Virus record (IMG/VR): IMGVR_UViG_3300044540_000029
Location: 1-25,250 of that record
From: a virus
Lineage: Duplodnaviria > Caudoviricetes
Direction: 5' to 3' (one strand)
DNA length: 25,250 bases
In this document: piece by piece, positions 8,999 through 22,573 of the stretch
How positions within the stretch are numbered: the stretch's first letter is position 1
Layout: every line of letters begins with the position of its first letter
Translations under genes and position numbers: made by a program
The notes under the pieces: model-generated
Seen by the model: only the letters and a program-made list of their open reading frames with translations
Databases searched by the model: none
What the model was told of the DNA's origin: nothing

Positions 8999-10054
8999 GT
9001 GGCAACAACGTCTAACTTAGCCGACATGGTTAGGTCCGAAATAGGAGATTCCTCTAAATCTTTTGTTATGCAGTTTATTGCAGATGGAACAACAAACAGA
9101 TTTGGTCTTCATTACTCTCCTGTAGATGCAGCGAGCCTTTACGTAAGATTTGATGACTTTAATGTCTCTAATGACGTATCTGTAGAAGAAGCAACGGGCG
9201 TTCTCGTTACTGATGTAATACCACCAGACGGAACTGAAATTACAGTTGCAGGAAACTACTTCAGATACTTTACTCCAGCAGAAATAAATCGTTTTGTAGA
9301 AAATGCTCTTTTACAGCATTCAAATAATAGAACAGACTCTTTGGGAAGAGTACAAACAATCGAAACTCTCCCAGCAGTAGAGGTATACCCTGTTGCTCTT
9401 TTAGCAAGCACACTAGCACTTTATACTCTAGCAACAGATGCTTCTTTTGATATTAACGTATTTGCTCCAGACGGTGTGACCATTCCACGTTCTGAGCGTT
9501 ACCGTCAGTTAATGGACATGATTCAAGCAAGAAAAGACCAGTACCGTGAATTGTGCATTTTATTAGGCATCGGTCTTTACAGAATTGAAGTATTTACATT
9601 CCGCAGAATTTCTAAAACAACAAATCATTACGTTCCAGTATATCGACCACAGGAGGTGGATGATTATTCCTACCCAGAAAGAATCGAACTTGCACGACCT
9701 ACCTACGGCGACCAGCCCTCAGAGCGACCTTATGACTCTGTGGAACTTACTGCCTATCAAGATGTGGCGTTTACGTACTCTATTCCGTACGTCGGAAACC
9801 TCACAGAAAAAGGCGTAGTAGCAAATATTCGTTGGAAAGCAGGGGTTTTACAAAGTCACATGCCGTTTACTGTGACAGTAACTACCTCTCCAACCGATAA
9901 TACAAGCCATACAATTACTATCAGTTTGACCAAAGAACAGACCAGGAGACTTGCACAGCGTATGTACTGGGACATCGAATTTGTTTATAACGATGGACAA
10001 AGAACCACGTATAAGGCTGGCAAACTATTTACAGTGCGTGAGGTGACAACGTAA
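8999..10054 (+). CDS. Putative head-tail adaptor/neck protein with extra beta-rich C-terminal domain
   Basis: Start moved from TTG 8951 to the in-frame GTG 8999, which follows GGAGGA. The [11 protein letters not shown] ... YFTPAEI ... [14 protein letters not shown] pattern is typical of head-completion adaptors. Located after the capsid cluster. Confidence 0.6.
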
Positions 10055-12198
10055 TGCCTATTGACCCAAATAGCCCTCTCTATCCAGAGATTGACCCTGC
10101 ACTTTTACCTGGAGTTCCTACAACTAGAGGACCTCGTGGTTATCAAGGACCAACAGGTCCTACTGGTCCACAAGGACCAGCAGGTTCTGCTTCTGCAACT
10201 GGTGCAACAGGACCAACTGGTTTAACTGGTTCGACTGGTGCAACAGGACCAACAGGTCCTACTGGTGCAGTTGGACCACAAGGTTTAACTGGATTTACTG
10301 GACCACAAGGACCAACAGGTCCTACTGGTGCTGACTCTCTTGTAACAGGTCCTACTGGTGCAGCAGGAGCAACTGGTGCTACTGGTGCTACTGGAGCAAC
10401 GGGTGCTACTGGTTTGCAAGGAGCAACTGGACCTAGTGGTCCGCAAGGTATTCAAGGACCGCAAGGTATTCAAGGTCCTACTGGACCTACTGGTGCATCT
10501 GGTGTTGCTGGTAACATTGGTCCAACTGGTCCAACTGGTGCACAAGGTATTCAAGGTCCTACAGGTGCTACTGGTGCAACAGGTGCTGCATCTACTGTTA
10601 CTGGTCCAACAGGACCTACTGGTGCACAAGGTGCAGTTGGTGCAACTGGTCCTACTGGTGCACAAGGTGTAACTGGTCCTACAGGTGCTGCATCTACAGT
10701 AACTGGTCCTACTGGTGCACAAGGTGTAACTGGTCCTACTGGTCCAACTGGTCCACAAGGAACTGCCGTAACAATTAAGGGTGAGTATGCAGACCAAGCA
10801 ACATTAGTTGCTGCTCGTCCTACAGGAAATTTTGGCGACGCATATTTAGTTGCAAATGGTGATTTGTATGTTTGGACTCCAAACTCAACCCCGCCAAACT
10901 TTGGTACATGGACCAACGTTGGAAATATTCAAGGACCAACTGGTCCATACGGTGCTACAGGAGCAACTGGTCCAACTGGTGCTGCATCTAACGTAACAGG
11001 TCCAACTGGTTCAACTGGACCTACTGGTGCTACAGGACCTACTGGAGCAGCCTCTAACGTAACAGGTCCAACTGGTGCGATTGGTGCGACAGGACCTACA
11101 GGAGCAACAGGACCTACTGGTGCAGCCTCACAAGTAACAGGTCCGACAGGACCTACAGGAGCAACAGGACCTACTGGTGCAGCCTCACAAGTAACAGGTC
11201 CTACTGGTGCTACTGGTGCAACTGGTCCTACAGGAGCCACAGGTCAAGATGGTACATCTATTAACCTTAAGGGAACTGTTGCAGCAGTTGAAAACCTTCC
11301 TTCTACAGGAAATACAAATGGTGATGCTTACCTTGTAACTGCAACAGGAAATATTTGGATTTGGTCAGGAAGTGCTTGGACAGATGGTGGTCCATTCCGT
11401 GGACCAACTGGTCCAACAGGAGCGACAGGTCCTACAGGAGCAACAGGTGCTGCAAGCACTGTAACTGGTCCAACTGGAGCAACAGGCCCTACAGGAGCAA
11501 CAGGACCTACTGGTGCACAAGGTCCTACTGGTGCACGTAACGGAACAACTTTTAAGATTTCAAATAATGGTGCGGGAACACAATTCTTAGTTGAAGGTAT
11601 CCCAGGAGATACCCCAACACTGGATGTTGTTCGTGGAGAAACTTACTACTTTGATTTAAGTTCTGTGCCTATTACAGACTCTTTTACAATTCGATTTAAC
11701 CTAACTGATACTGCAAACCCAATTCCTGGAATGGTTGGAAACAACATTTCTACAGGAGCATACGCTGGCAGTACTCCAAATATAATTACTTACACAGTTC
11801 CTCTTGATGCTCCAGCAAATTTAATTTATCGAAGCGTTCAAGATGCAACTCAAGTTGGTGTAATTGCAATCTACGATAAGCGAGGACCAACTGGACCTAC
11901 AGGTCCACAGGGTGTAACTGGACCTACTGGTGCAGCATCAACAGTTCCTGGCCCTACTGGTCCAACTGGACCTACAGGTCCAACAGGTCCTGTTGGTCAG
12001 TTTACTGCTTCAGCATCAGCACCTGCAGTTGAGAATTCAGAGCCAGGTGATGCTTGGTTTAACACTCAAACTGCAAAAACTTACGTATTCTTTAACAATG
12101 CTTGGACAGAGGTTGCTTCTGGAAATATTGGTCCAACAGGTCCACAAGGACAGGCTGGTTCTTTAGCACTCTCGACAATGTGGTGGCTTGGAGCATGA
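10054..12198 (+). CDS. Collagen-like fibre protein 1 (GPT/GAT repeats with interspersed globular domains)
   Basis: Long Gly-X-Thr runs. Two copies of a KG.......L...G..GDAYLV...G..WIW/YVW...WT..G...GP module, a cupredoxin-like domain lacking Cu ligands, and a C-terminal AP....GDAWFNT...Y.....W module. TAATG coupling to the upstream gene. Confidence 0.88.
11087..11201 (+). repeat. Perfect 57-bp tandem duplication inside the collagen region
   Basis: Unit CGACAGGACCTACAGGAGCAACAGGACCTACTGGTGCAGCCTCACAAGTAACAGGTC starts at 11087 and again at 11144. Confidence 0.85.
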
Positions 12199-12271: not shown

Positions 12272-14974
12272 ATGCCTGGTTTTCTTGGTGGTAGTAGTGG
12301 TGGAAGTACTAGTTCTTCTGGCGTAGGCGGAGAAATTACTTTCCCATCGGCGTTTATTGACCCAGTAACTAAACTCCGTATTTCACAGCCTGAAACACTG
12401 ATTGATACTGACTTTGAATACGGTTTGCAGCCTACTAAGTGGGAAACTGTTGAACTTATTAATAACACACCATCGTTCTTTTCAAAGAGCGGTGACACAA
12501 CAATTCCAAATATTTCATCAATCTTGTCTACTGAGCAATCTCGAGAAATTAAAGTTATTACTTCTCTTGCTCACGGACTTGCTGTTGGTATTCCAATTAA
12601 CGTTGCTGGAACTAAGTCTCTTACAGCAAACGGTTCTTTCATTATCAACTCAGTTCCAACTCCAACTTCTTTTACATACCTATGTAAGCAAAATCAGGCA
12701 CAAACTGCTTCTATTGAAGACTTGTATACATCTGTTATTACAGGTGAGTTTTTCCAAGGTTCACAAATTAGAATTTCTGACTCTGAAGGTATTAAGACAG
12801 ATGCGGGAACTATTTCAACACTTACAGTTAAAACAGATAGCCCACACGGTTTTGGTTTAAATACCCCATTTTATTTCCTAAACCTAAACTCTTCTATCTC
12901 TCAAGAGTTTGACTCTTCAAATACAACTGGTAAGTCCTTTGATGCTTCTAACTCATCTACTGCACAAACATTTGATGGTTCAAATACCCTCAATTATCTA
13001 CCTGTTGATTTTGATAATAAAGCAAGTACAGGAAATATTACAAGTAGCATTCTTTCTGTTGACACATCTGCAGACACAATCACAGTGTCACACCAAACTG
13101 GTGAAACATTTGTAAACGCTGTTGTTGGAACCCCTCTTTACTACAACGTAGTTGCTGGTTCAGGATTCTTCTTTAACAACCCTCGTGGAATTGTTTTCGT
13201 AAAGTCAACAGGAACTTTGAGTGCTTCTACCGCTACATTCTCTGTAAGCGAAGTTCCAAACGGAACTACTATCGACATCGTAGGTTCAATGACAGGAACC
13301 TTCCAACTAGCAAACCTTGCAAAAACATTTGCTGGAAATAATCAAGGATTAGAAGCACCTGTAACAGTCCAACTTGGAACAGCAAAAACATTTGATGGTG
13401 CAAATACTGCTGGTGGTTCTGGAACGATTTCATCCTTTAGCGGTTCTTTGGTAAGTATGTTGTCTGATTCAGGAATCTCAGACCTTGATTGGTACAACGG
13501 CACTATGGTGCAGTACACCACAACAGGAAATGCTGCTACAGGTTTGACAGCAAATGCAACTTACTTTATTGACACATTCTTCTTTAACAATACTCCTGGA
13601 CAATACTTCTTTACGCTAAAGAACCTTCCAGGAGCAGCAGGAAGCCCAATTACCTCTATGTCAGGAGGAACTGGAACTCAAAAATTTAGGCAAATTGGAG
13701 TTTCCGCAGACCTTGATATTGTTCACGTAAGAAACAACGGCTTTACTGATAAGCAGATGGTTAAGTACACTTACCCAGCAAACGGACGTTTTACTACCCC
13801 TGGTTCTGAAGCAAAAGACTTCTACTTTGTTACTAATAAGTATGATGACCACAACTTCAAGTTAAACCATTTACTGGCTTCTATTTTGCCTCTTACTGCA
13901 GCAATTAATGGTGAAGCGGTAACTAATAACATTGTCGCTGGTTCTCAACAGACATTAACTGCTCAAGGCTTTACAGGAGCGGTTTCATACTCTATTTCTC
14001 CAGCGTTGCCTTCAGGTTTATCAATGAGCACATCTACAGGTTTAATTAGCGGAACACCTACAGGTGCTTATGCTGCTGCTCATACAATTACTGGAACTGA
14101 TGCTTCTGGAGGTCAAGCATTCCAGACAGTTAACATTAACTTTACTGCTCCACCTCCACAAGGACAGTCAGCCTTTACATCACCTGGAACATACACATTT
14201 ACAGTCCCTGCTCGTGTATCAACAATTTCAGCAATGGCTGTTGGTGGTGGCGGTGGCGGTTCTTATATTTGGTCATACGGTGCTGGTGGCGGTGGAGGAA
14301 CCGCTTGGATTGCAGGTCTTCCTGTAACTCCAGGAGAAACCTTTACTGTTGAAGTTGGCGGTGGCGGAAGCACTTGGTCTTACGAAGGTTCTCGCCCAGG
14401 AAACAACTCAGTATTACGCCGTAACTCAAGCGGAGTTAACCACATCATTGGTTATGGTTCAGGACAAGGTGGACCTAACTCTGCTGGTGGTGCTTCTGGT
14501 GGATACACATTCACTGGTGGTTCATCTGGTGGTGGCGGTCGTGGTGGATACACTAACTGGAACTGGCCTTATGCTGGTGGCGGTGCTGGTGGTTACCAAG
14601 GTCATGGTGGCGATTACAACGGTGGTCAAGGCTATGGTGGCGGTGGCGGTGCTGGTGCTATGCACTCCTCATATTGGGGAACACCTGCTGGTGGCGGTGT
14701 AGGTATTAACGGTCAGTTTAATGACGGTCAGGCTTCTTACTATGGTCATGGTGGTTTCGGTGGCTCTGGTGGAACACAAGGTGGTTTCGGTGAGCCTTAC
14801 CACTACTACGGTCGTGGAGATATTAACGGCGGTATTTATGGTGGCGGTGCTGGCGGTTCTGGCTCTGCTTACTACGGTGGCGGAAACGGTGGCGGAGGAG
14901 CGGTTCGAATTATCTGGGGTCCAAACCGTGCTTATCCAAATACAAACACTACAGACCAGACAACAACCACTTAA
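12272..14974 (+). CDS. Large virion structural/fibre protein A (beta repeats, He_PIG-type Ig domain, C-terminal glycine-rich domain)
   Basis: 900 aa, Thr/Ser/Gly-rich. HG-type beta repeats, Ig-like YSISPALPSGLSMSTSTGLISGTPT, and polyglycine domain FTSPGTYTFTVP...VGGGGGG...GGAVRIIW. Confidence 0.8.
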   Translation: MPGFLGGSSGGSTSSSGVGGEITFPSAFIDPVTKLRISQPETLIDTDFEYGLQPTKWETVELINNTPSFFSKSGDTTIPNISSILSTEQSREIKVITSLAHGLAVGIPINVAGTKSLTANGSFIINSVPTPTSFTYLCKQNQAQTASIEDLYTSVITGEFFQGSQIRISDSEGIKTDAGTISTLTVKTDSPHGFGLNTPFYFLNLNSSISQEFDSSNTTGKSFDASNSSTAQTFDGSNTLNYLPVDFDNKASTGNITSSILSVDTSADTITVSHQTGETFVNAVVGTPLYYNVVAGSGFFFNNPRGIVFVKSTGTLSASTATFSVSEVPNGTTIDIVGSMTGTFQLANLAKTFAGNNQGLEAPVTVQLGTAKTFDGANTAGGSGTISSFSGSLVSMLSDSGISDLDWYNGTMVQYTTTGNAATGLTANATYFIDTFFFNNTPGQYFFTLKNLPGAAGSPITSMSGGTGTQKFRQIGVSADLDIVHVRNNGFTDKQMVKYTYPANGRFTTPGSEAKDFYFVTNKYDDHNFKLNHLLASILPLTAAINGEAVTNNIVAGSQQTLTAQGFTGAVSYSISPALPSGLSMSTSTGLISGTPTGAYAAAHTITGTDASGGQAFQTVNINFTAPPPQGQSAFTSPGTYTFTVPARVSTISAMAVGGGGGGSYIWSYGAGGGGGTAWIAGLPVTPGETFTVEVGGGGSTWSYEGSRPGNNSVLRRNSSGVNHIIGYGSGQGGPNSAGGASGGYTFTGGSSGGGGRGGYTNWNWPYAGGGAGGYQGHGGDYNGGQGYGGGGGAGAMHSSYWGTPAGGGVGINGQFNDGQASYYGHGGFGGSGGTQGGFGEPYHYYGRGDINGGIYGGGAGGSGSAYYGGGNGGGGAVRIIWGPNRAYPNTNTTDQTTTT

Positions 14975-14989
14975 GGGAGTGAGTAGATA

Positions 14990-17900
14990 ATGCCAATTAA
15001 TATTACTGCGTCGGGTTTAACAGGAACACACTCCTTCACACCCACAAATATAAATACTGCTGACTACTACCTCTATTACCCAACAGACACAAGTGGTCAA
15101 CCAACTATCCCTGCAGCGTTAAGAGATGGTTCTGCCTTTATTTATAATACTGGTCTAGGAACAATCAACGGACTTACAGATGGAAACCTTTACTACATTA
15201 AGCGTGTTGGAACTGCTCAAGTTTTCTTTAGTAATACAGCAGGTGGTACTGACGTAACATTAACAACCCCAAGTGCTGGTACTGCATTTTTTAACGCTCC
15301 TTACGTTTACCAAAATAAACTTTCTATTGAGGCAACTCTTTCAGATAATCAGGCAGTTCGTTATGTAACAGACGGAACAGCAATTGGCGGACTTACAAAA
15401 AATAACGTTTACTTTATTAAAACTTCTAACACAGGTTTTGGTACCGCAAATGCTCTTTACTCATTCTCATCATTTACTTTCACAACGGCTGGAACTACTG
15501 GAAACGTAGGCCCTTCTATTAGCACTATCAAAGCACACTCTAGTTACAGTGGTGCTGCATGGAGAACAGATTACCTACAAGCAGGTAATTTCCAAGGTTA
15601 CCAAGATTGGACTGTTCCAACATCTGGTACATATACATTTAACGTTCGCGGTGCTTCAGGACTTAACGGCTCTGGTTCTGGTTCTGCTGGTCGCGGTGCA
15701 ATTGTTCAAGGACGCGTATTCCTACAAAAGGGTGAAGTTATCACGATTGTAGTTGGACAACGCGGAACTGCTGCTCGTTCTGGCTCCACTTATGGTGGTT
15801 CAGGTGGAGGTTCTTGGGTTGTTCGCAAATCAGGAAATGTTCCTCTTTTTGTGGCGGGTGGAGGTTCTGCAGATGCAGATACCACTAACGGTTTAGACGG
15901 TGTGCTTTCAACTGGTGGCGGTTCATCCTCTGCTGGTGCTGATGGAGGTTCAAACGGTAACGGTGCACTTGCAACTGGAGGTAACTCTGGTGGTGGCGGT
16001 GGTTTCTCTACTGACGGTTCTAATGCAGCCACAGGTATTAAGGGCGGTGGTTCTTTTGCTACAGGTTTAACAACCTCTGGTGGAGGAACTGTTGGTGGTC
16101 TTGGTGGTTTTGGTGGCGGTGCATCTGCTGATGGAGACACAACTGGTCAATCTGGTGGTGGCGGTGGCTACTCTGGTGGTGCTGGTGCTCGCTCTAATGC
16201 TGCACGTGTTGCTGGTGGTGGCGGTGGTTCATTCATCGTAACTACAGCAACAAACGTTGCAACATCAAACGGTAGTTTTAACGGTTCAACTTCTTGGGGA
16301 ACAGAAACAATTACAAACCTTAACTCTTGGAATGCAGATGCTGATGGTCAAGTAACAGTAACACTAGTTGCTGCTGCTGCTGCAACAATTACTTTGCACC
16401 CAACAGCAGTTGATGCAAACGACGGAACTAACACAATTACTCTTACTCCTGGTGGAAGTAAGTACCATGCTTTGGTTCCTCTACAGGTAGATTTAACAAG
16501 CAACACCTTCTATTCACCATCTTTGCATGGTCTTAGTAATGGAGAAGCAGTTAAGTTTGTAACCAATGGAACTACTCCTGGCGGTATTACTGCAAACACA
16601 TCAACCTATTATGTAAATAAGATTGATAACTATTCTTACAAATTAAGCACAACACCATCTCCAGGATTTACTGATGTTGATGTAACAAGCCCTGGTTTTG
16701 GAACTATTGAGCGTTTTGACAAGATTATTGTTAACACAGCAACAAATACAATTACTATTAATAACCACGGTTTCTTGGCTAATCAGCCTGTTAAGTATGC
16801 TGTTAATGGTGGAACTGCTATTGCTCCACTCGTTGATGGTGCGACCTACTATGTAAAGACAGTAGTTGATGCAAACCGCATTATTCTAAGTCAATCTTTG
16901 AATGGTCCAGATTTAGATTTAACATCTGCTGGAACAGGCACTGGTCACTCCTTTATCTTCGTTACAGTTAACGTAGAAGAAGATAGCCTTTACATCCCAC
17001 AGCATGACCTATCAACAGGTCAAAGAGTTGTATACTCAAGTGGTGCTGGAACAGCAATTGGCGGACTTACAAATGGTTCTTCTTACTTCGTATTTAGAGT
17101 AGATGCAAACATTATTAAGTTGTCTACTGTTAAAACAGGAGCAGCAATTGTTAACCTAACTGGATTAGGTACAGGAACTCACACCCTTACTGTTAACTCA
17201 GTGGATTTGACTACTGAAACGATTACAATTCCAAACCACGGATTTACTACAGGTGAACTTGTATCTTACGATACAGCAGGACAAGCACCACTAACAGGAC
17301 TTGTTTCTGGTTCTCCTTACTATGTAATTGCACCAAATGGTGATGAAATTAAGTTGGCAACAACTTATGACAATGCTATTAATGGAACAGCAATTAACCT
17401 AACAGGTGTAGGTGTTGGAAAGCATAGACTTTACTCACTTATCCGTACACCAGACGGTATCTACACAGTAGATTCGGTTCCAAGTACCACAACGTTCTCT
17501 GTTAAGGCGAATGGTCTTGTTCCTCTTATTGTTAAAGAGTTTGTTCCACGTTCTACAGTTGACACACAACAGAACGTATTTAAAATCTTAGGACATGGAT
17601 TTATTACTGGAACTAAGGTTACTTACAGTTCAGGTGGAGGCTCATCAATTGGTGGCTTGTCTTCTGGAACAGATTATTACGTAATTAACGTAAACAAGGA
17701 CTACATCAAACTTGCTTCTTCTGCAGATAACGCTATTTCTGGTACACCTGTCATAATTTCTGACTTTGGTTCTGGAAATGGTCACCACTTCACTTCTGCC
17801 CAGATTAACGGACAGATTGTTGGTGCAGGTACAGTTACAACTGAAGCAGGCTCTGTATTGGTAGCAGGTTCTGGAACCGCTTTTGCTAAAATTTTAAAGG

Positions 17901-20584
17901 TGGGAGATAAGTTTAGAGTCTTCCCAGCCAATACAAATAAGAGCAACACTTTTGCAAGTTCTGCTTTTAATGCGTCAACTAACGTTATTACAATTTCAAA
18001 CCATGGTTATTTGACTGGTGACGTTGTTACATACACAGCAGGAGCGGGTGGTGTTGCACCAACTGGTCTTGTTACAACCTATAACTACTATGTTCGTCGT
18101 ATTGATTCATCAACCCTTACATTGCACAACACACTAACTGATGCAAATAACAACACAAACCAGGTTGACTTTACTAACCAAGGAACTGGTAGTGCTCATA
18201 ATCTAATTAACGTAGTTCCAAGAACTCCAATTATTAGAACAATTACTGCTATTGGTTCTGACACTCAGATTACAATTGATAGACCATATAGTGAGGCATA
18301 TTCAGGTGTTGCGTATTCATACCCAACCTTTATCTATGTTCGTCCTGAAGGATACTCTCTACACCGTCCATTCGATGGTGGTGTTGAAATGTCAACAGGT
18401 GTCGGAACATCCTTCTCTCAGATTGTTCGTCAGACTCGTAAGTACTTCCGTTACCAGTCAGGTAAGGGTATTCAGGTATCCTTTGCTATTAACTTCAAGC
18501 CATCAATTGACCTTGAGACACTTACAAAGATTAGTGCAACAACTATTCAAGGTAAGACTCGTCGTCCACATGGTTTGTTAAATGGTCTAACAGTTGCGAT
18601 TAAGGATGCTCTAAAGCCAGATGGAACACAGAGCACTGTTTATAACGGACTTTTCCAAATTTCTGTTCTAGACCCGTACAATTTCACCTTTATCTCTCCT
18701 GCAGCAATTCCTGCGGGTCAAGAAAAAGCATACGGATTCCCACATCTTTATGTAAATGCTTGGCAAAACGGTGCGGTTCGTTCAGGTATGTTTGACTTCC
18801 AGAACGGTATGTTCTTTGAGTTTGATGGTCAAAAGATTTACGCAGTACGTCGTTCTTCTACCCAGCAAATTGCTGGAACTGCTGCAGCACAGCAAGGTTC
18901 TGAGTTAGTCTTTGGAACTGGCACATCATTCACATCTCAACTTTCTGTAGGTGAGTACATTGTTATGCGTGGTCAAACCTACAAGGTTGCTGCAGTTACA
19001 AGTGATACTCAAATTACAATTAAGCCTGAGTACAAGGGTGCTTCAGGTTCTCTCAAAGAGTTTAACCCTCAAACAGTTGTAAATGCTTCAACAGACACAT
19101 TTACAATTCTAGGTCACGGCTTTGTTGAGAACCTAGCGGTCTCTTATGACTCAATTGATGGAGTTCCAATTGGAGGTCTTATCAATGGACGTACCTACTA
19201 TGTAAAAGTTGTAGATAACAACAACTTTAAGTTAATGGGTACACCAAACTCTGTATCTACAGTAGCAATTGCTGACACAGGTAGCGGAACTCTGCACTCA
19301 TTCCAGCCTTCAAAGGCAGGTATCATCATTACTAAGACCATTGATACACGAGTCCCACAAGACCAATGGAATATCGACGTTTGCGATGGAACAGGTCCTA
19401 CAGGATACGTTCTTGACCTATCTAGAATTCAAATGGCTTACATTGACTACTCTTGGTACGGTGCTGGAAAGATTCGTTTTGGATTTAAGACAAAGGATGG
19501 ACAAGTACGTTATGTCCACGAGTTTAAGCACAACAACGAGTTGTATGAGTCATACCTACGTTCAGGTAACTTGCCTGCCCGTTATGAAGTAACCACTCTC
19601 TCTAACCCAACTTATATCCCTTACCTATTCCACTGGGGTACTTCGGTTATCATGGATGGTCGCTTTGATGATGACAAGGCATACCTCTTTACAGGAACTA
19701 GCCAGACACTACAGATTCTTGGTACTACAGCCAAGTCCTTTGGTTCAAAGGCTATCAACACAACAACTAACCGAATTAACATCCCAACACACGGTTTCTC
19801 TAGCGGAGATGCTGTAACGTTCCAGGGCTTTACATCAGCAGGTATTGCTGGTGTTGTAAATCAGAACCCAGGAACTGTTAATAACGTAGCACACCCATTC
19901 AGTAACCTACAGAATCAACGGACATACTATATCTGCCGTCAAGATGCTGACAATATAACCTTCCACAATACTCAGGCAGATGCAATTGCAACTTCTGGTA
20001 CTTCACCAAATATTGTGCTAGGTACAAACCCTATTGATATTACTACTACAGGTAATACTCAGTACACATTCTTTATCTATCCACTAGGTGCTGCAAATAA
20101 CACCTCTGGTGTTAACTACCAGCCACTTCTATCAATTCGCCTTTCTCCTTCAGTATCTGAAGGTTTGACAGGTAAGTTGGGTGACCGTGACGTTATCAAC
20201 CGTATGCAGTTGACTATGAGTGAAATCGGTATCCAAACAACTCAGTTGGTAGACGTGAAGTTGCTACTCAATGGACGTTTGAACAACTTGAACTTCCAAG
20301 GAGTGCCACAGCCTTCTCTAACTCAGACAATTCAACATACATCAAACGACACTATCTCTGGTGGTGTTCAGGTGTATAACTTCCGTGCACAAGGTGGTTC
20401 TTCAGGTGCTGAAGCATCAACCACTGTTGACATTAGTGAGTTGTTTGAACTTTCAAACTCTATTCTAGGAGGAGACTCTGTGTATCCAGATGGTCCAGAC
20501 ATTCTAACGATTGCTGTGGCTCGTCTAACAGGTAACACTACTCTGACTTCTGCTAAATTATCATGGCGAGAAGCACAAGCCTAA
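14990..20584 (+). CDS. Giant virion structural/fibre protein B (about ten ~75-80 aa HG repeats, glycine-rich domain, conserved C-terminal core)
   Basis: 1864 aa. Repeats of I...HG..TG..V.Y......I.GL.....YYV.......KL......ID.T..G...H. Glycine-rich domain (QDWTVPTSGTY...GGGGS). Core motifs RQTRKYFRYQSGKG, WNIDVCDGTGPTG, YSWYGAGKIRFG and NLPARYE. Confidence 0.82.
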   Translation: MPINITASGLTGTHSFTPTNINTADYYLYYPTDTSGQPTIPAALRDGSAFIYNTGLGTINGLTDGNLYYIKRVGTAQVFFSNTAGGTDVTLTTPSAGTAFFNAPYVYQNKLSIEATLSDNQAVRYVTDGTAIGGLTKNNVYFIKTSNTGFGTANALYSFSSFTFTTAGTTGNVGPSISTIKAHSSYSGAAWRTDYLQAGNFQGYQDWTVPTSGTYTFNVRGASGLNGSGSGSAGRGAIVQGRVFLQKGEVITIVVGQRGTAARSGSTYGGSGGGSWVVRKSGNVPLFVAGGGSADADTTNGLDGVLSTGGGSSSAGADGGSNGNGALATGGNSGGGGGFSTDGSNAATGIKGGGSFATGLTTSGGGTVGGLGGFGGGASADGDTTGQSGGGGGYSGGAGARSNAARVAGGGGGSFIVTTATNVATSNGSFNGSTSWGTETITNLNSWNADADGQVTVTLVAAAAATITLHPTAVDANDGTNTITLTPGGSKYHALVPLQVDLTSNTFYSPSLHGLSNGEAVKFVTNGTTPGGITANTSTYYVNKIDNYSYKLSTTPSPGFTDVDVTSPGFGTIERFDKIIVNTATNTITINNHGFLANQPVKYAVNGGTAIAPLVDGATYYVKTVVDANRIILSQSLNGPDLDLTSAGTGTGHSFIFVTVNVEEDSLYIPQHDLSTGQRVVYSSGAGTAIGGLTNGSSYFVFRVDANIIKLSTVKTGAAIVNLTGLGTGTHTLTVNSVDLTTETITIPNHGFTTGELVSYDTAGQAPLTGLVSGSPYYVIAPNGDEIKLATTYDNAINGTAINLTGVGVGKHRLYSLIRTPDGIYTVDSVPSTTTFSVKANGLVPLIVKEFVPRSTVDTQQNVFKILGHGFITGTKVTYSSGGGSSIGGLSSGTDYYVINVNKDYIKLASSADNAISGTPVIISDFGSGNGHHFTSAQINGQIVGAGTVTTEAGSVLVAGSGTAFAKILKVGDKFRVFPANTNKSNTFASSAFNASTNVITISNHGYLTGDVVTYTAGAGGVAPTGLVTTYNYYVRRIDSSTLTLHNTLTDANNNTNQVDFTNQGTGSAHNLINVVPRTPIIRTITAIGSDTQITIDRPYSEAYSGVAYSYPTFIYVRPEGYSLHRPFDGGVEMSTGVGTSFSQIVRQTRKYFRYQSGKGIQVSFAINFKPSIDLETLTKISATTIQGKTRRPHGLLNGLTVAIKDALKPDGTQSTVYNGLFQISVLDPYNFTFISPAAIPAGQEKAYGFPHLYVNAWQNGAVRSGMFDFQNGMFFEFDGQKIYAVRRSSTQQIAGTAAAQQGSELVFGTGTSFTSQLSVGEYIVMRGQTYKVAAVTSDTQITIKPEYKGASGSLKEFNPQTVVNASTDTFTILGHGFVENLAVSYDSIDGVPIGGLINGRTYYVKVVDNNNFKLMGTPNSVSTVAIADTGSGTLHSFQPSKAGIIITKTIDTRVPQDQWNIDVCDGTGPTGYVLDLSRIQMAYIDYSWYGAGKIRFGFKTKDGQVRYVHEFKHNNELYESYLRSGNLPARYEVTTLSNPTYIPYLFHWGTSVIMDGRFDDDKAYLFTGTSQTLQILGTTAKSFGSKAINTTTNRINIPTHGFSSGDAVTFQGFTSAGIAGVVNQNPGTVNNVAHPFSNLQNQRTYYICRQDADNITFHNTQADAIATSGTSPNIVLGTNPIDITTTGNTQYTFFIYPLGAANNTSGVNYQPLLSIRLSPSVSEGLTGKLGDRDVINRMQLTMSEIGIQTTQLVDVKLLLNGRLNNLNFQGVPQPSLTQTIQHTSNDTISGGVQVYNFRAQGGSSGAEASTTVDISELFELSNSILGGDSVYPDGPDILTIAVARLTGNTTLTSAKLSWREAQA

Positions 20585-20596
20585 AAAGGAGCACAA

Positions 20597-21133
20597 ATGG
20601 CAATTATCAGGCTGGGGGTTGCTAACCCTTCTGCAAACGTGGCGACTATTGCGTCAACAGTGGCTAACTCCCACCTTGTTTCCGTAATTATTGCTAACAA
20701 GTCTCTTAATGCTTCTCCCGTGATGAAAGCAAATGTTTGGGTTGTGCCACAAGGTGCTAGTACAACTTCTCAGTATGCTTACGTTTGTTCTAACTTAATT
20801 GTTGGACCAGGACAGTCTTTTGAAACATTTCGGTTTGCATTAAACGCAAATGACGCTTTGTATGTCTCAGCAACAACTGACGACGCATCATTTTCTGTCT
20901 ATGGTTTGCTACAATCGGAAGATGTAGGACCAGGGGATGCTTACCAAACATTCAGAAATAAAACAATTCGCGGTAACGCAAATGTTCTTTATGTAGATAA
21001 GGGTACAACTGCTCAACGCGATAACACTACAGAAGTTGGTTATATTCGGTTTAACACAGATTTAAATAATAATGAAGGAGCACTAGAAGTGAAGACAACA
21101 AGCGGTTGGAAAACAGTTAGGTGGGTTGATTAA
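20597..21133 (+). CDS. Virion structural protein (beta-sandwich plus small fibre module)
   Basis: AAGGAG RBS. N-terminal ~105 aa paralogous to the next gene. C-terminal KGTTAQR....GYIRFNT.....LEV....W module of the type common in phage fibre proteins. Confidence 0.75.
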   Translation: MAIIRLGVANPSANVATIASTVANSHLVSVIIANKSLNASPVMKANVWVVPQGASTTSQYAYVCSNLIVGPGQSFETFRFALNANDALYVSATTDDASFSVYGLLQSEDVGPGDAYQTFRNKTIRGNANVLYVDKGTTAQRDNTTEVGYIRFNTDLNNNEGALEVKTTSGWKTVRWVD

Positions 21134-21136
21134 GAA

Positions 21137-22573
<1,437 letters not shown>

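Follow-up and report, generated by a model that had tools for sequence, protein, structure and literature searches.

A phage virion protein of the PHROG 5838 family probably divided by a single fission inside a beta-barrel repeat, with a swappable tip at the cut

Why should one phage gene stop partway through a structural repeat and the next gene begin with what resembles the missing remainder? The question is raised by a 25,250-nucleotide stretch of viral DNA (Duplodnaviria; Caudoviricetes), comprising positions 1 to 25,250 of IMG/VR record IMGVR_UViG_3300044540_000029 and referred to here in its whole length as the window. Two adjacent genes on its plus strand, to which all features described below belong, encode very large proteins, A of 900 aa (12272..14974) and B of 1864 aa (14990..20584), both recognized as open reading frames (ORFs) with matches to the phage protein family PHROG 5838. 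A and B are probably the N-terminal half, extended by a variable tip, and the C-terminal half of a virion protein in this family that one fission event divided inside a barrel; the halves would be re-assembled as a heterodimer by complementing strands, with the C-terminus of A becoming a swappable tip. This heterodimer would likely be obligate.

Residues 28-91 of A match positions 102-162 of the PHROG 5838 profile (E 4.4e-21) and include the family N-motif, DPVTKLRISQP..DTDFEYG..KWE (12359..12445), while the conserved core of B (HRPFDGG, YFRYQSGK, DYSWYGAG, NLPARYE and a W-x-E-A-Q-A end, with inserted barrels; 18326..20581, the RQT..YFRYQSGK motif beginning at 18428) matches positions 557-655 (E 3e-117), collinear with the A part. 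With N-motif and core on two ORFs, the window thus carries a split variant rather than a plain member of the family, which occurs in myoviruses, one podovirus, and siphovirus-type genomes. Cyanophage members (S-PM2 p175, annotated T4-like GC 863; S-RSM4 gp036; S-BM3 gp190; S-CAM1) and the podovirus ctQRb9 resemble A/B in the order of N-motif, barrels, core, and C-terminal end, but have one ORF instead of two and no free internal C-terminus. Among the 120 long homologues listed of 209, 119 unite the A N-terminus and the B core in one chain and the remaining one is a long A-type protein, the length filter applied here favouring fused forms; at 40 loci outside the clade of the window, 35 have one ORF, 4 are truncated, and 1 was undetected, and none is cut at the window's site. 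The original prediction, that the two motifs normally lie in one polypeptide, was correct in this respect, and every motif it named was recovered at the position given. When shorter core homologues were sought, most of those retrieved were contig pieces from the window's own clade; this set is no test for other cut sites. Most fused members also possess an N-terminal domain of about 90 aa (MAKKL..) that is absent from the split loci: a hidden Markov model (HMM) built from 100 fused proteins matches five fused annotated proteins and no split locus, and a few fused members are likewise without it. The virion status of the family is taken from the annotation of cyanophage members only; in the part of the source available, the proteomics of S-PM2 is mentioned without naming p175 (PMC2984593). 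Searches of the open-access literature and of PDB sequences found no structure or function for the family, the latter giving only glycine-rich, immunoglobulin (Ig), and small-barrel matches.

In three unrooted trees, built from 25 or 21 split rows and 46 fused rows, the split forms lie on one side of a branch (A N-terminus, 86/95; B core, 99; B C-terminal part, 93), which is consistent with a single origin of the split in one freshwater clade. The closest neighbour of the split clade is the fused homologue P0002, of 4358 aa, in two of these trees.

The position of the cut can be read from the repeats themselves. In A, two complete six-stranded HG barrels (A257-347 and A372-472, with a linker holding further opening motifs; 13040..13687; delimited by AlphaFold and a repeat HMM) are followed by a third that is cut (A475-533; 13694..13870). 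In the 91-column repeat HMM, this last repeat covers columns 10-66 and then ends, as read on the identical A of another locus (L001). It breaks off after YFVTNKYDDHNFKL, which ends at 13864, and B opens with MPINITASGLTGTHSF, within a conserved start (B1-16; 14990..15037) that was identified by matrix, HMM, and conservation as the closing strand of the cut barrel. The first 25 residues of B score as a closing strand with a median of 11.6 bits, and above 8 bits in 34 of 47 homologues; by the same matrix, which was trained on stand-alone repeats only, is ungapped, and misses closings one residue shorter, no closing strand was found in the 45 residues that follow the repeat in A in any of the 47. 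A looser closing motif was found in none of 56 A tails, although its positive control, the intact repeats, was recovered in only 25 of 79; all 56 B heads match it, but these had been selected on part of that motif. Repeat HMM and matrix thus bear out that the last HG repeat of A is without its closing strand and that the start of B supplies the matching segment.

P0002 provides the register of the uncut chain. The profile of A385-533 matches it best at 1378-1508 (38.0 bits, next 27.9) and that of B1-150 at 1524-1667 (51.1 bits, next 22.7), so that the two best matches adjoin, 15 residues apart, within one repeat of about a dozen. These sequence comparisons support the placing of the cut inside one six-stranded beta-barrel repeat of the ancestral chain. 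The site is also fixed: in a set of 162 loci retrieved by internal B motifs and not de-duplicated (overall, 20 loci were without a B match and 2 lay at an edge), 161 have a stop no more than 40 codons upstream of the B start, and the sole exception, L316, also has its split at that start, together with an additional glycine-rich insert. Fused homologues, the P0002 register, and the fixed cut together agree with the earlier proposal of one ancestral, nested, out-and-back protein cut inside a repeat.

A second barrel is divided between the chains. FCCH-like barrel 1 is intact in A (A89-139; 12536..12688; HMM and half-matrices), and barrel 2 has its N-half in A (A183-205; 12818..12886) and its C-half as an orphan in B (B821-838; 17450..17503). 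Half-matrices were used to detect these because a full-length FCCH HMM is blind to half modules (89 of 119 undetected). With them, A184-203 scored 9.9 bits as N-half against 4.4 for the 95th percentile of shuffled maxima, and B822-838 scored 14.3 bits as C-half against 8.9, in keeping with the claim that these are complementary halves of barrel 2. In S-RSM4, barrel 2 is contiguous, with halves at 260 and 287, and in ctQRb9 both halves are on one chain, with the C-half at 791; in S-BM3 and P0002 the halves fell outside the matrices' top four and were assigned by reading the sequences. In nearly all A/B pairs, the halves of both the cut barrel and barrel 2 sit on opposite chains. Pfam E1_FCCH matches B weakly, and the ESM Atlas gave viral clusters and a weak FCCH lead.

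Beyond the cut, A becomes variable, its identity dropping to 20-36% after residue ~535. In the window, the tip is opened by a He_PIG Ig-like domain (13895..14143; Pfam E 3.2e-08, above cut-off) and continued by a glycine-rich domain (14159..14971; Gly_rich_2 below cut-off; PHROG 4474). The 56 complete distinct A proteins carry tips of three classes, defined by sequence pattern with L007 misfiled (it belongs with the first class): 25 Ig plus glycine-rich, 14 glycine-rich, and 17 fibrinogen-like. Pfam assigned Gly_rich_2 to 9 of 17 representative tips, He_PIG to 2, Fibrinogen_C below cut-off to 3, and nothing to 4. At least five changes of the fibrinogen-like label are forced by starred tree branches, and among 89 pairs with stalks 70-80% identical the tips are less than 20% identical in 37; the tip has therefore been exchanged, as predicted of a free C-terminus. 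The companion idea, in which the cut was made by a cassette of Ig and glycine-rich domains, was not borne out: 17 of the 56 tips are fibrinogen-like, and such a cassette need not have been the first insert. From their domain families and position, the tip domains would bind host surfaces.

Structure models were made for the stalk of A and for a single-chain relative. AlphaFold, run on A178-540 alone with 33 sequences, gave two confident six-stranded barrels and a cut repeat without its sixth strand. Nearly all of A178-253, which comprises the half barrel and a series of orphan xxF-D-xx-N opening motifs (A206-253; 12887..13030; delimited by conservation and AlphaFold), falls below 50 in predicted local distance difference test (pLDDT) score, and yet A181-240 is 78-83% identical across 61 homologues versus 36-69% for the folded repeats and linker. 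We infer that A206-253 packs on the four tandem HG barrels of B (B495-815; 16472..17434; repeat HMM). The barrels of A resemble those of EF-Tu domain II/III and E1 FCCH (best single-domain Z 7.5; E1 FCCH entries 5.8-6.1), at values below 8 that may mean a common fold only. A natural single-chain homologue of 1000 aa (L171), modelled from 71 sequences, reached a predicted template modelling score of 0.70, with several invariant core motifs below pLDDT 50; together with the N-motif, discussed below, these low-confidence motifs hint at an oligomer or partner interface.

Several observations weigh against this picture of fission and re-assembly. The split rows entered the trees on their similarity to the window, a choice that favours monophyly, and in the core tree the split clade does not have P0002 as its nearest neighbour. 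A D/N to N/D swap across the two genes, at one of the coupled residue pairs that link the closing segment to its barrel, seen in 14 of 17 cases versus 15 of 89, is non-significant after correction for relatedness, with 4-5 independent pairs going the same way and 1 the opposite (p 0.2-0.4; earlier 4 to 0, p 0.125). Local HMM alignment of A extends into the closing columns in 41% of 56 loci, the opening motifs do not correspond one-to-one to tandem barrels in fused homologues, and the N-motif stays below pLDDT 50 even in the natural fused chain of L171, so that its proposed completion of the B core was not borne out. As to whether A folds complete by itself, its complete repeats are six-stranded in the model and A178-253 is disordered, yet the cut barrel, though it lacks the sixth strand, is modelled at pLDDT 68-91 without B. 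With a truncated repeat modelled this well by itself, the main joint may be other than the closing strand.

This last point leads to the strongest of the rival explanations, in which A and B would be joined only through base and stalk (N-motif, barrel 2, and A206-253), B1-16 being kept for strand 1 of the first barrel of B and the cut barrel of A tolerating the loss of a strand. In addition to the modelled confidence of that barrel, B13-20 scores weakly as an opening motif (4.2 bits), and in tandem repeats the closing strand continues directly into the next barrel. However, couplings calculated from 1201 repeats connect the closing segment with the barrel before it (17-77, 54-75, 62-75, and 43-80), natural A/B pairs outscore shuffled pairs on these couplings (relatedness uncorrected), and B3-10 (I-N-I-T-x-x-G), which lies ahead of the shared strand, is among the best-conserved parts of the B start; this arrangement is accordingly considered unlikely. 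Somewhat less probable still is that A and B became independent virion components after fission, with their half-domains kept for other partners in the cassette such as the collagen-like fibres or a 178-aa protein. The collagen and 178-aa genes do accompany A and B, and an unrelated gene of 116-119 aa can separate the two, but it would be hard to reconcile independence with two different barrels whose halves sit on opposite chains, with a stretch (A178-253) that is highly conserved yet disordered alone, or with an A/B order that is constant in 68 of 68 pairs (a set not de-duplicated, with a few starts mis-called).

Continued production of a single fused protein, by stop read-through or frameshifting, is very improbable. 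It draws on the window's junction (14975..14989), a 15-base gap free of TGA across which A and B are in frame. The junction reads TAA GGG AGT GAG TAG ATA ATG, as the original prediction described it, and so places two in-frame stops (TAA and TAG) and a Shine-Dalgarno-like GGGAG ahead of B. The shared frame is real in the window but coincidental, 34 of the 68 pairs being in frame and 34 out of frame, the latter with gaps of 2 to more than 360 bases. Of 64 loci, 59 have a Shine-Dalgarno-like word ahead of B (counted without a chance control), and a separate ORF stands between the genes in two loci. Programmed read-through or frameshifting was thus rejected, a conserved frame relation and a single stop both being missing, and a sequencing error at the junction was ruled out by conservation across loci. 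The intervening ORF, of 116-119 aa and unassigned family, lies at L013:7280-7630 and L019:12794-13153. There is equally little to commend a split ancestral state from which single chains arose by fusion: the trees, being unrooted, would allow it, but the fused forms, which come from myo-, podo-, and other phages, are far more diverse, with the split ones a single shallow group among them, and the gene boundary interrupts a barrel that every other repeat has complete.

For the preferred reading, a fission within the PHROG 5838 chain, the surviving forms suggest an order of events. Barrel 2 would initially have been intact, as in S-PM2 and S-RSM4; strings of barrels would then have been inserted into a loop of barrel 2, giving an out-and-back chain such as those of ctQRb9, S-BM3, and P0002; and a terminal domain with its own stop would have entered the loop before the last strand of a barrel near the far end of the hairpin, the next strand gaining a start. 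The contacts predicted from this are that B1-16 closes the last barrel of A, that A183-205 and B821-838 rebuild barrel 2, that A206-253 runs antiparallel along the tandem barrels of B, and that the A N-motif is docked onto the B cores or between them. The core would most likely anchor the appendage to the particle as an oligomer, and the freed C-terminus of A would present the swappable, probably host-binding, tip.

B itself is also variable within its barrels. An ALK/LTK-type glycine-rich domain is inserted in one of its HG barrels (15461..16369; Pfam PF12810, 37.7 bits versus a cut-off of 24.5 over B211-458; ALK/LTK chains matched in PDB, E 5e-06). Such inserts occupy different barrel loops among loci, and L316 (2856-4100) has a second one in the first barrel. 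The B homologue of phage DSL-LC01 (OQ999401.1 108221-116782, L081) is annotated 'ALK tyrosine kinase receptor' because of its glycine-rich insert only. In a subclade that includes it (L037, L048, L051, L054, L058, L070, L074, L075, and L081), B reaches ~2650-2850 aa through ~800 extra residues between B578 and B862, and the A tips are fibrinogen-like. Single-locus breaks at L059:14418-15293 (B) and L125:5926-5938 (core) look like deletion or error.

The window represents part of a tailed-phage genome, its own record being 26% complete, and its gene order is terminase, portal, capsid, collagen-like fibre, A, B, a 178-aa gene, a second collagen-like gene, and methyl- and glycosyltransferases. 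A PASTA-domain protein and a KTSC-domain protein are encoded before the terminase (385-813 and 827-1591). The collagen-like gene upstream of A (10054..12198; Pfam and locus comparison) ends ..WWLG(A/I/V), and its C-terminal part is matched in 80 of 81 loci, so that it accompanies A/B. The tail, S/T-x-W-W-L/F-G-(A/I/V), is conserved in L010, L013, L019, L025, L037, L041, and L064 as well as in the window, and is a possible anchor or docking motif. Downstream of B, the 178-aa gene, whose product has no Pfam or PHROG match, and a collagen-like gene with a similar N-terminus (20597..22573) belong to the same cassette and are present in 41 of 81 loci, many loci ending earlier. In the window, the two genes after B (20597-21133 and 21137-21580) open with similar domains of ~110 aa and are candidate adaptors between the B core and the collagen fibres. 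The sequencing runs containing the stretch are freshwater metagenomes; three of them contain it in full and may be its source. Its nearest annotated relative (77-80% identity), DSL-LC01, is a metagenome-assembled lake phage with Actinomycetia as predicted host (PMC10611076), and one closely similar core fragment is catalogued with a Micrococcales metagenome-assembled genome; the hosts of the split-gene phages are probably freshwater Actinobacteria.

The role of A/B is most likely, as we infer, that of an accessory adhesion appendage moving as a cassette. In S-BM3 and S-CAM1 the family gene lies just before the neck genes gp13-15, and cyanomyoviruses are described as lacking the T4 wac and tail fibre genes, which unknown structural proteins may replace (PMC2984593). 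Some 25 kb separate the cassette of DSL-LC01 from the tail operon, and the two are on opposite strands. Variable fibre and collagen islands have been suggested as host-recognition regions in cultured Nanopelagicales phages (PMC10202952). Of 81 loci, 39 have the capsid type of the window upstream, whereas 25 loci with ~10 kb of upstream DNA do not, and the family profile matches small barrels of the F2-pyocin side fibre and of an endosialidase. Tentatively, and with a little less than even confidence, A and B may be pictured as a two-chain appendage zipped along its full length, in which strands of A lie against a ladder of B barrels, two barrels are common to both chains, and fission has made an exchangeable adhesin site at the fibre apex, the whole constituting a portable host-recognition cassette passed among freshwater actinophages whose head and tail backbones are unrelated.

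In chaperone-usher and type V pili, donor-strand complementation allows a terminal strand of one protein to complete the domain of another. A and B differ from these in having a barrel rather than an Ig fold, one cut, two different proteins, and no subunit polymer, and no chaperone or usher gene was seen. A closer likeness is offered by Pseudomonas podophage A1002, whose nozzle is divided between gp39 and gp42, each filling the other's missing beta-strands in a cryo-electron microscopy structure, with the freed end taking on a fibre role; that the complementary module was acquired is the authors' proposal (PMC13730344). In both systems a normally single-chain virion protein is made as two gene products, and here too an intact counterpart exists and each chain is without strands that the other carries, as known from sequence and monomer models. 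The A1002 nozzle, as reported, is a propeller and platform, in contrast to the nested barrel chain, traceable fused relative, and repeated tip exchange of A/B. In phage Tuc2009, a terminal hairpin of BppU completes a beta-sheet of BppA and attaches an accessory carbohydrate-binding module (PMC4742702), forming a composite Ig/titin-like domain with one joint and, as there described, no out-and-back chain. FCCH is a six-stranded closed antiparallel barrel, found on the outer face of some siphovirus tail tubes (PMC13576161), and a weak FCCH likeness is noted also in PMC13612043; the tail-tube domain is single and intact, and the FCCH-like barrels of A/B are repeated, nested, and cut. Since A1002 and Tuc2009 have been published, strand complementation between phage proteins is already known in principle. 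A description of this family's split was not found in the open-access literature, subscription journals lying mostly outside the search. Novel in the present case are a nested barrel design in which at least two domains are shared, a fission that can be traced, and the swappable tip that results.

The locus thus offers a rare gene fission inside a folded domain that can be traced stepwise, from an intact barrel through an interrupted barrel to a split chain, and that is tied to a gain, a new C-terminus at which unrelated, probably binding, domains are swapped. The complementing split barrels could be a natural plug-and-socket for protein engineering. For an abundant family of virion proteins, it provides testable joints, and it marks out a likely determinant of host range in the phages that infect freshwater Actinobacteria.

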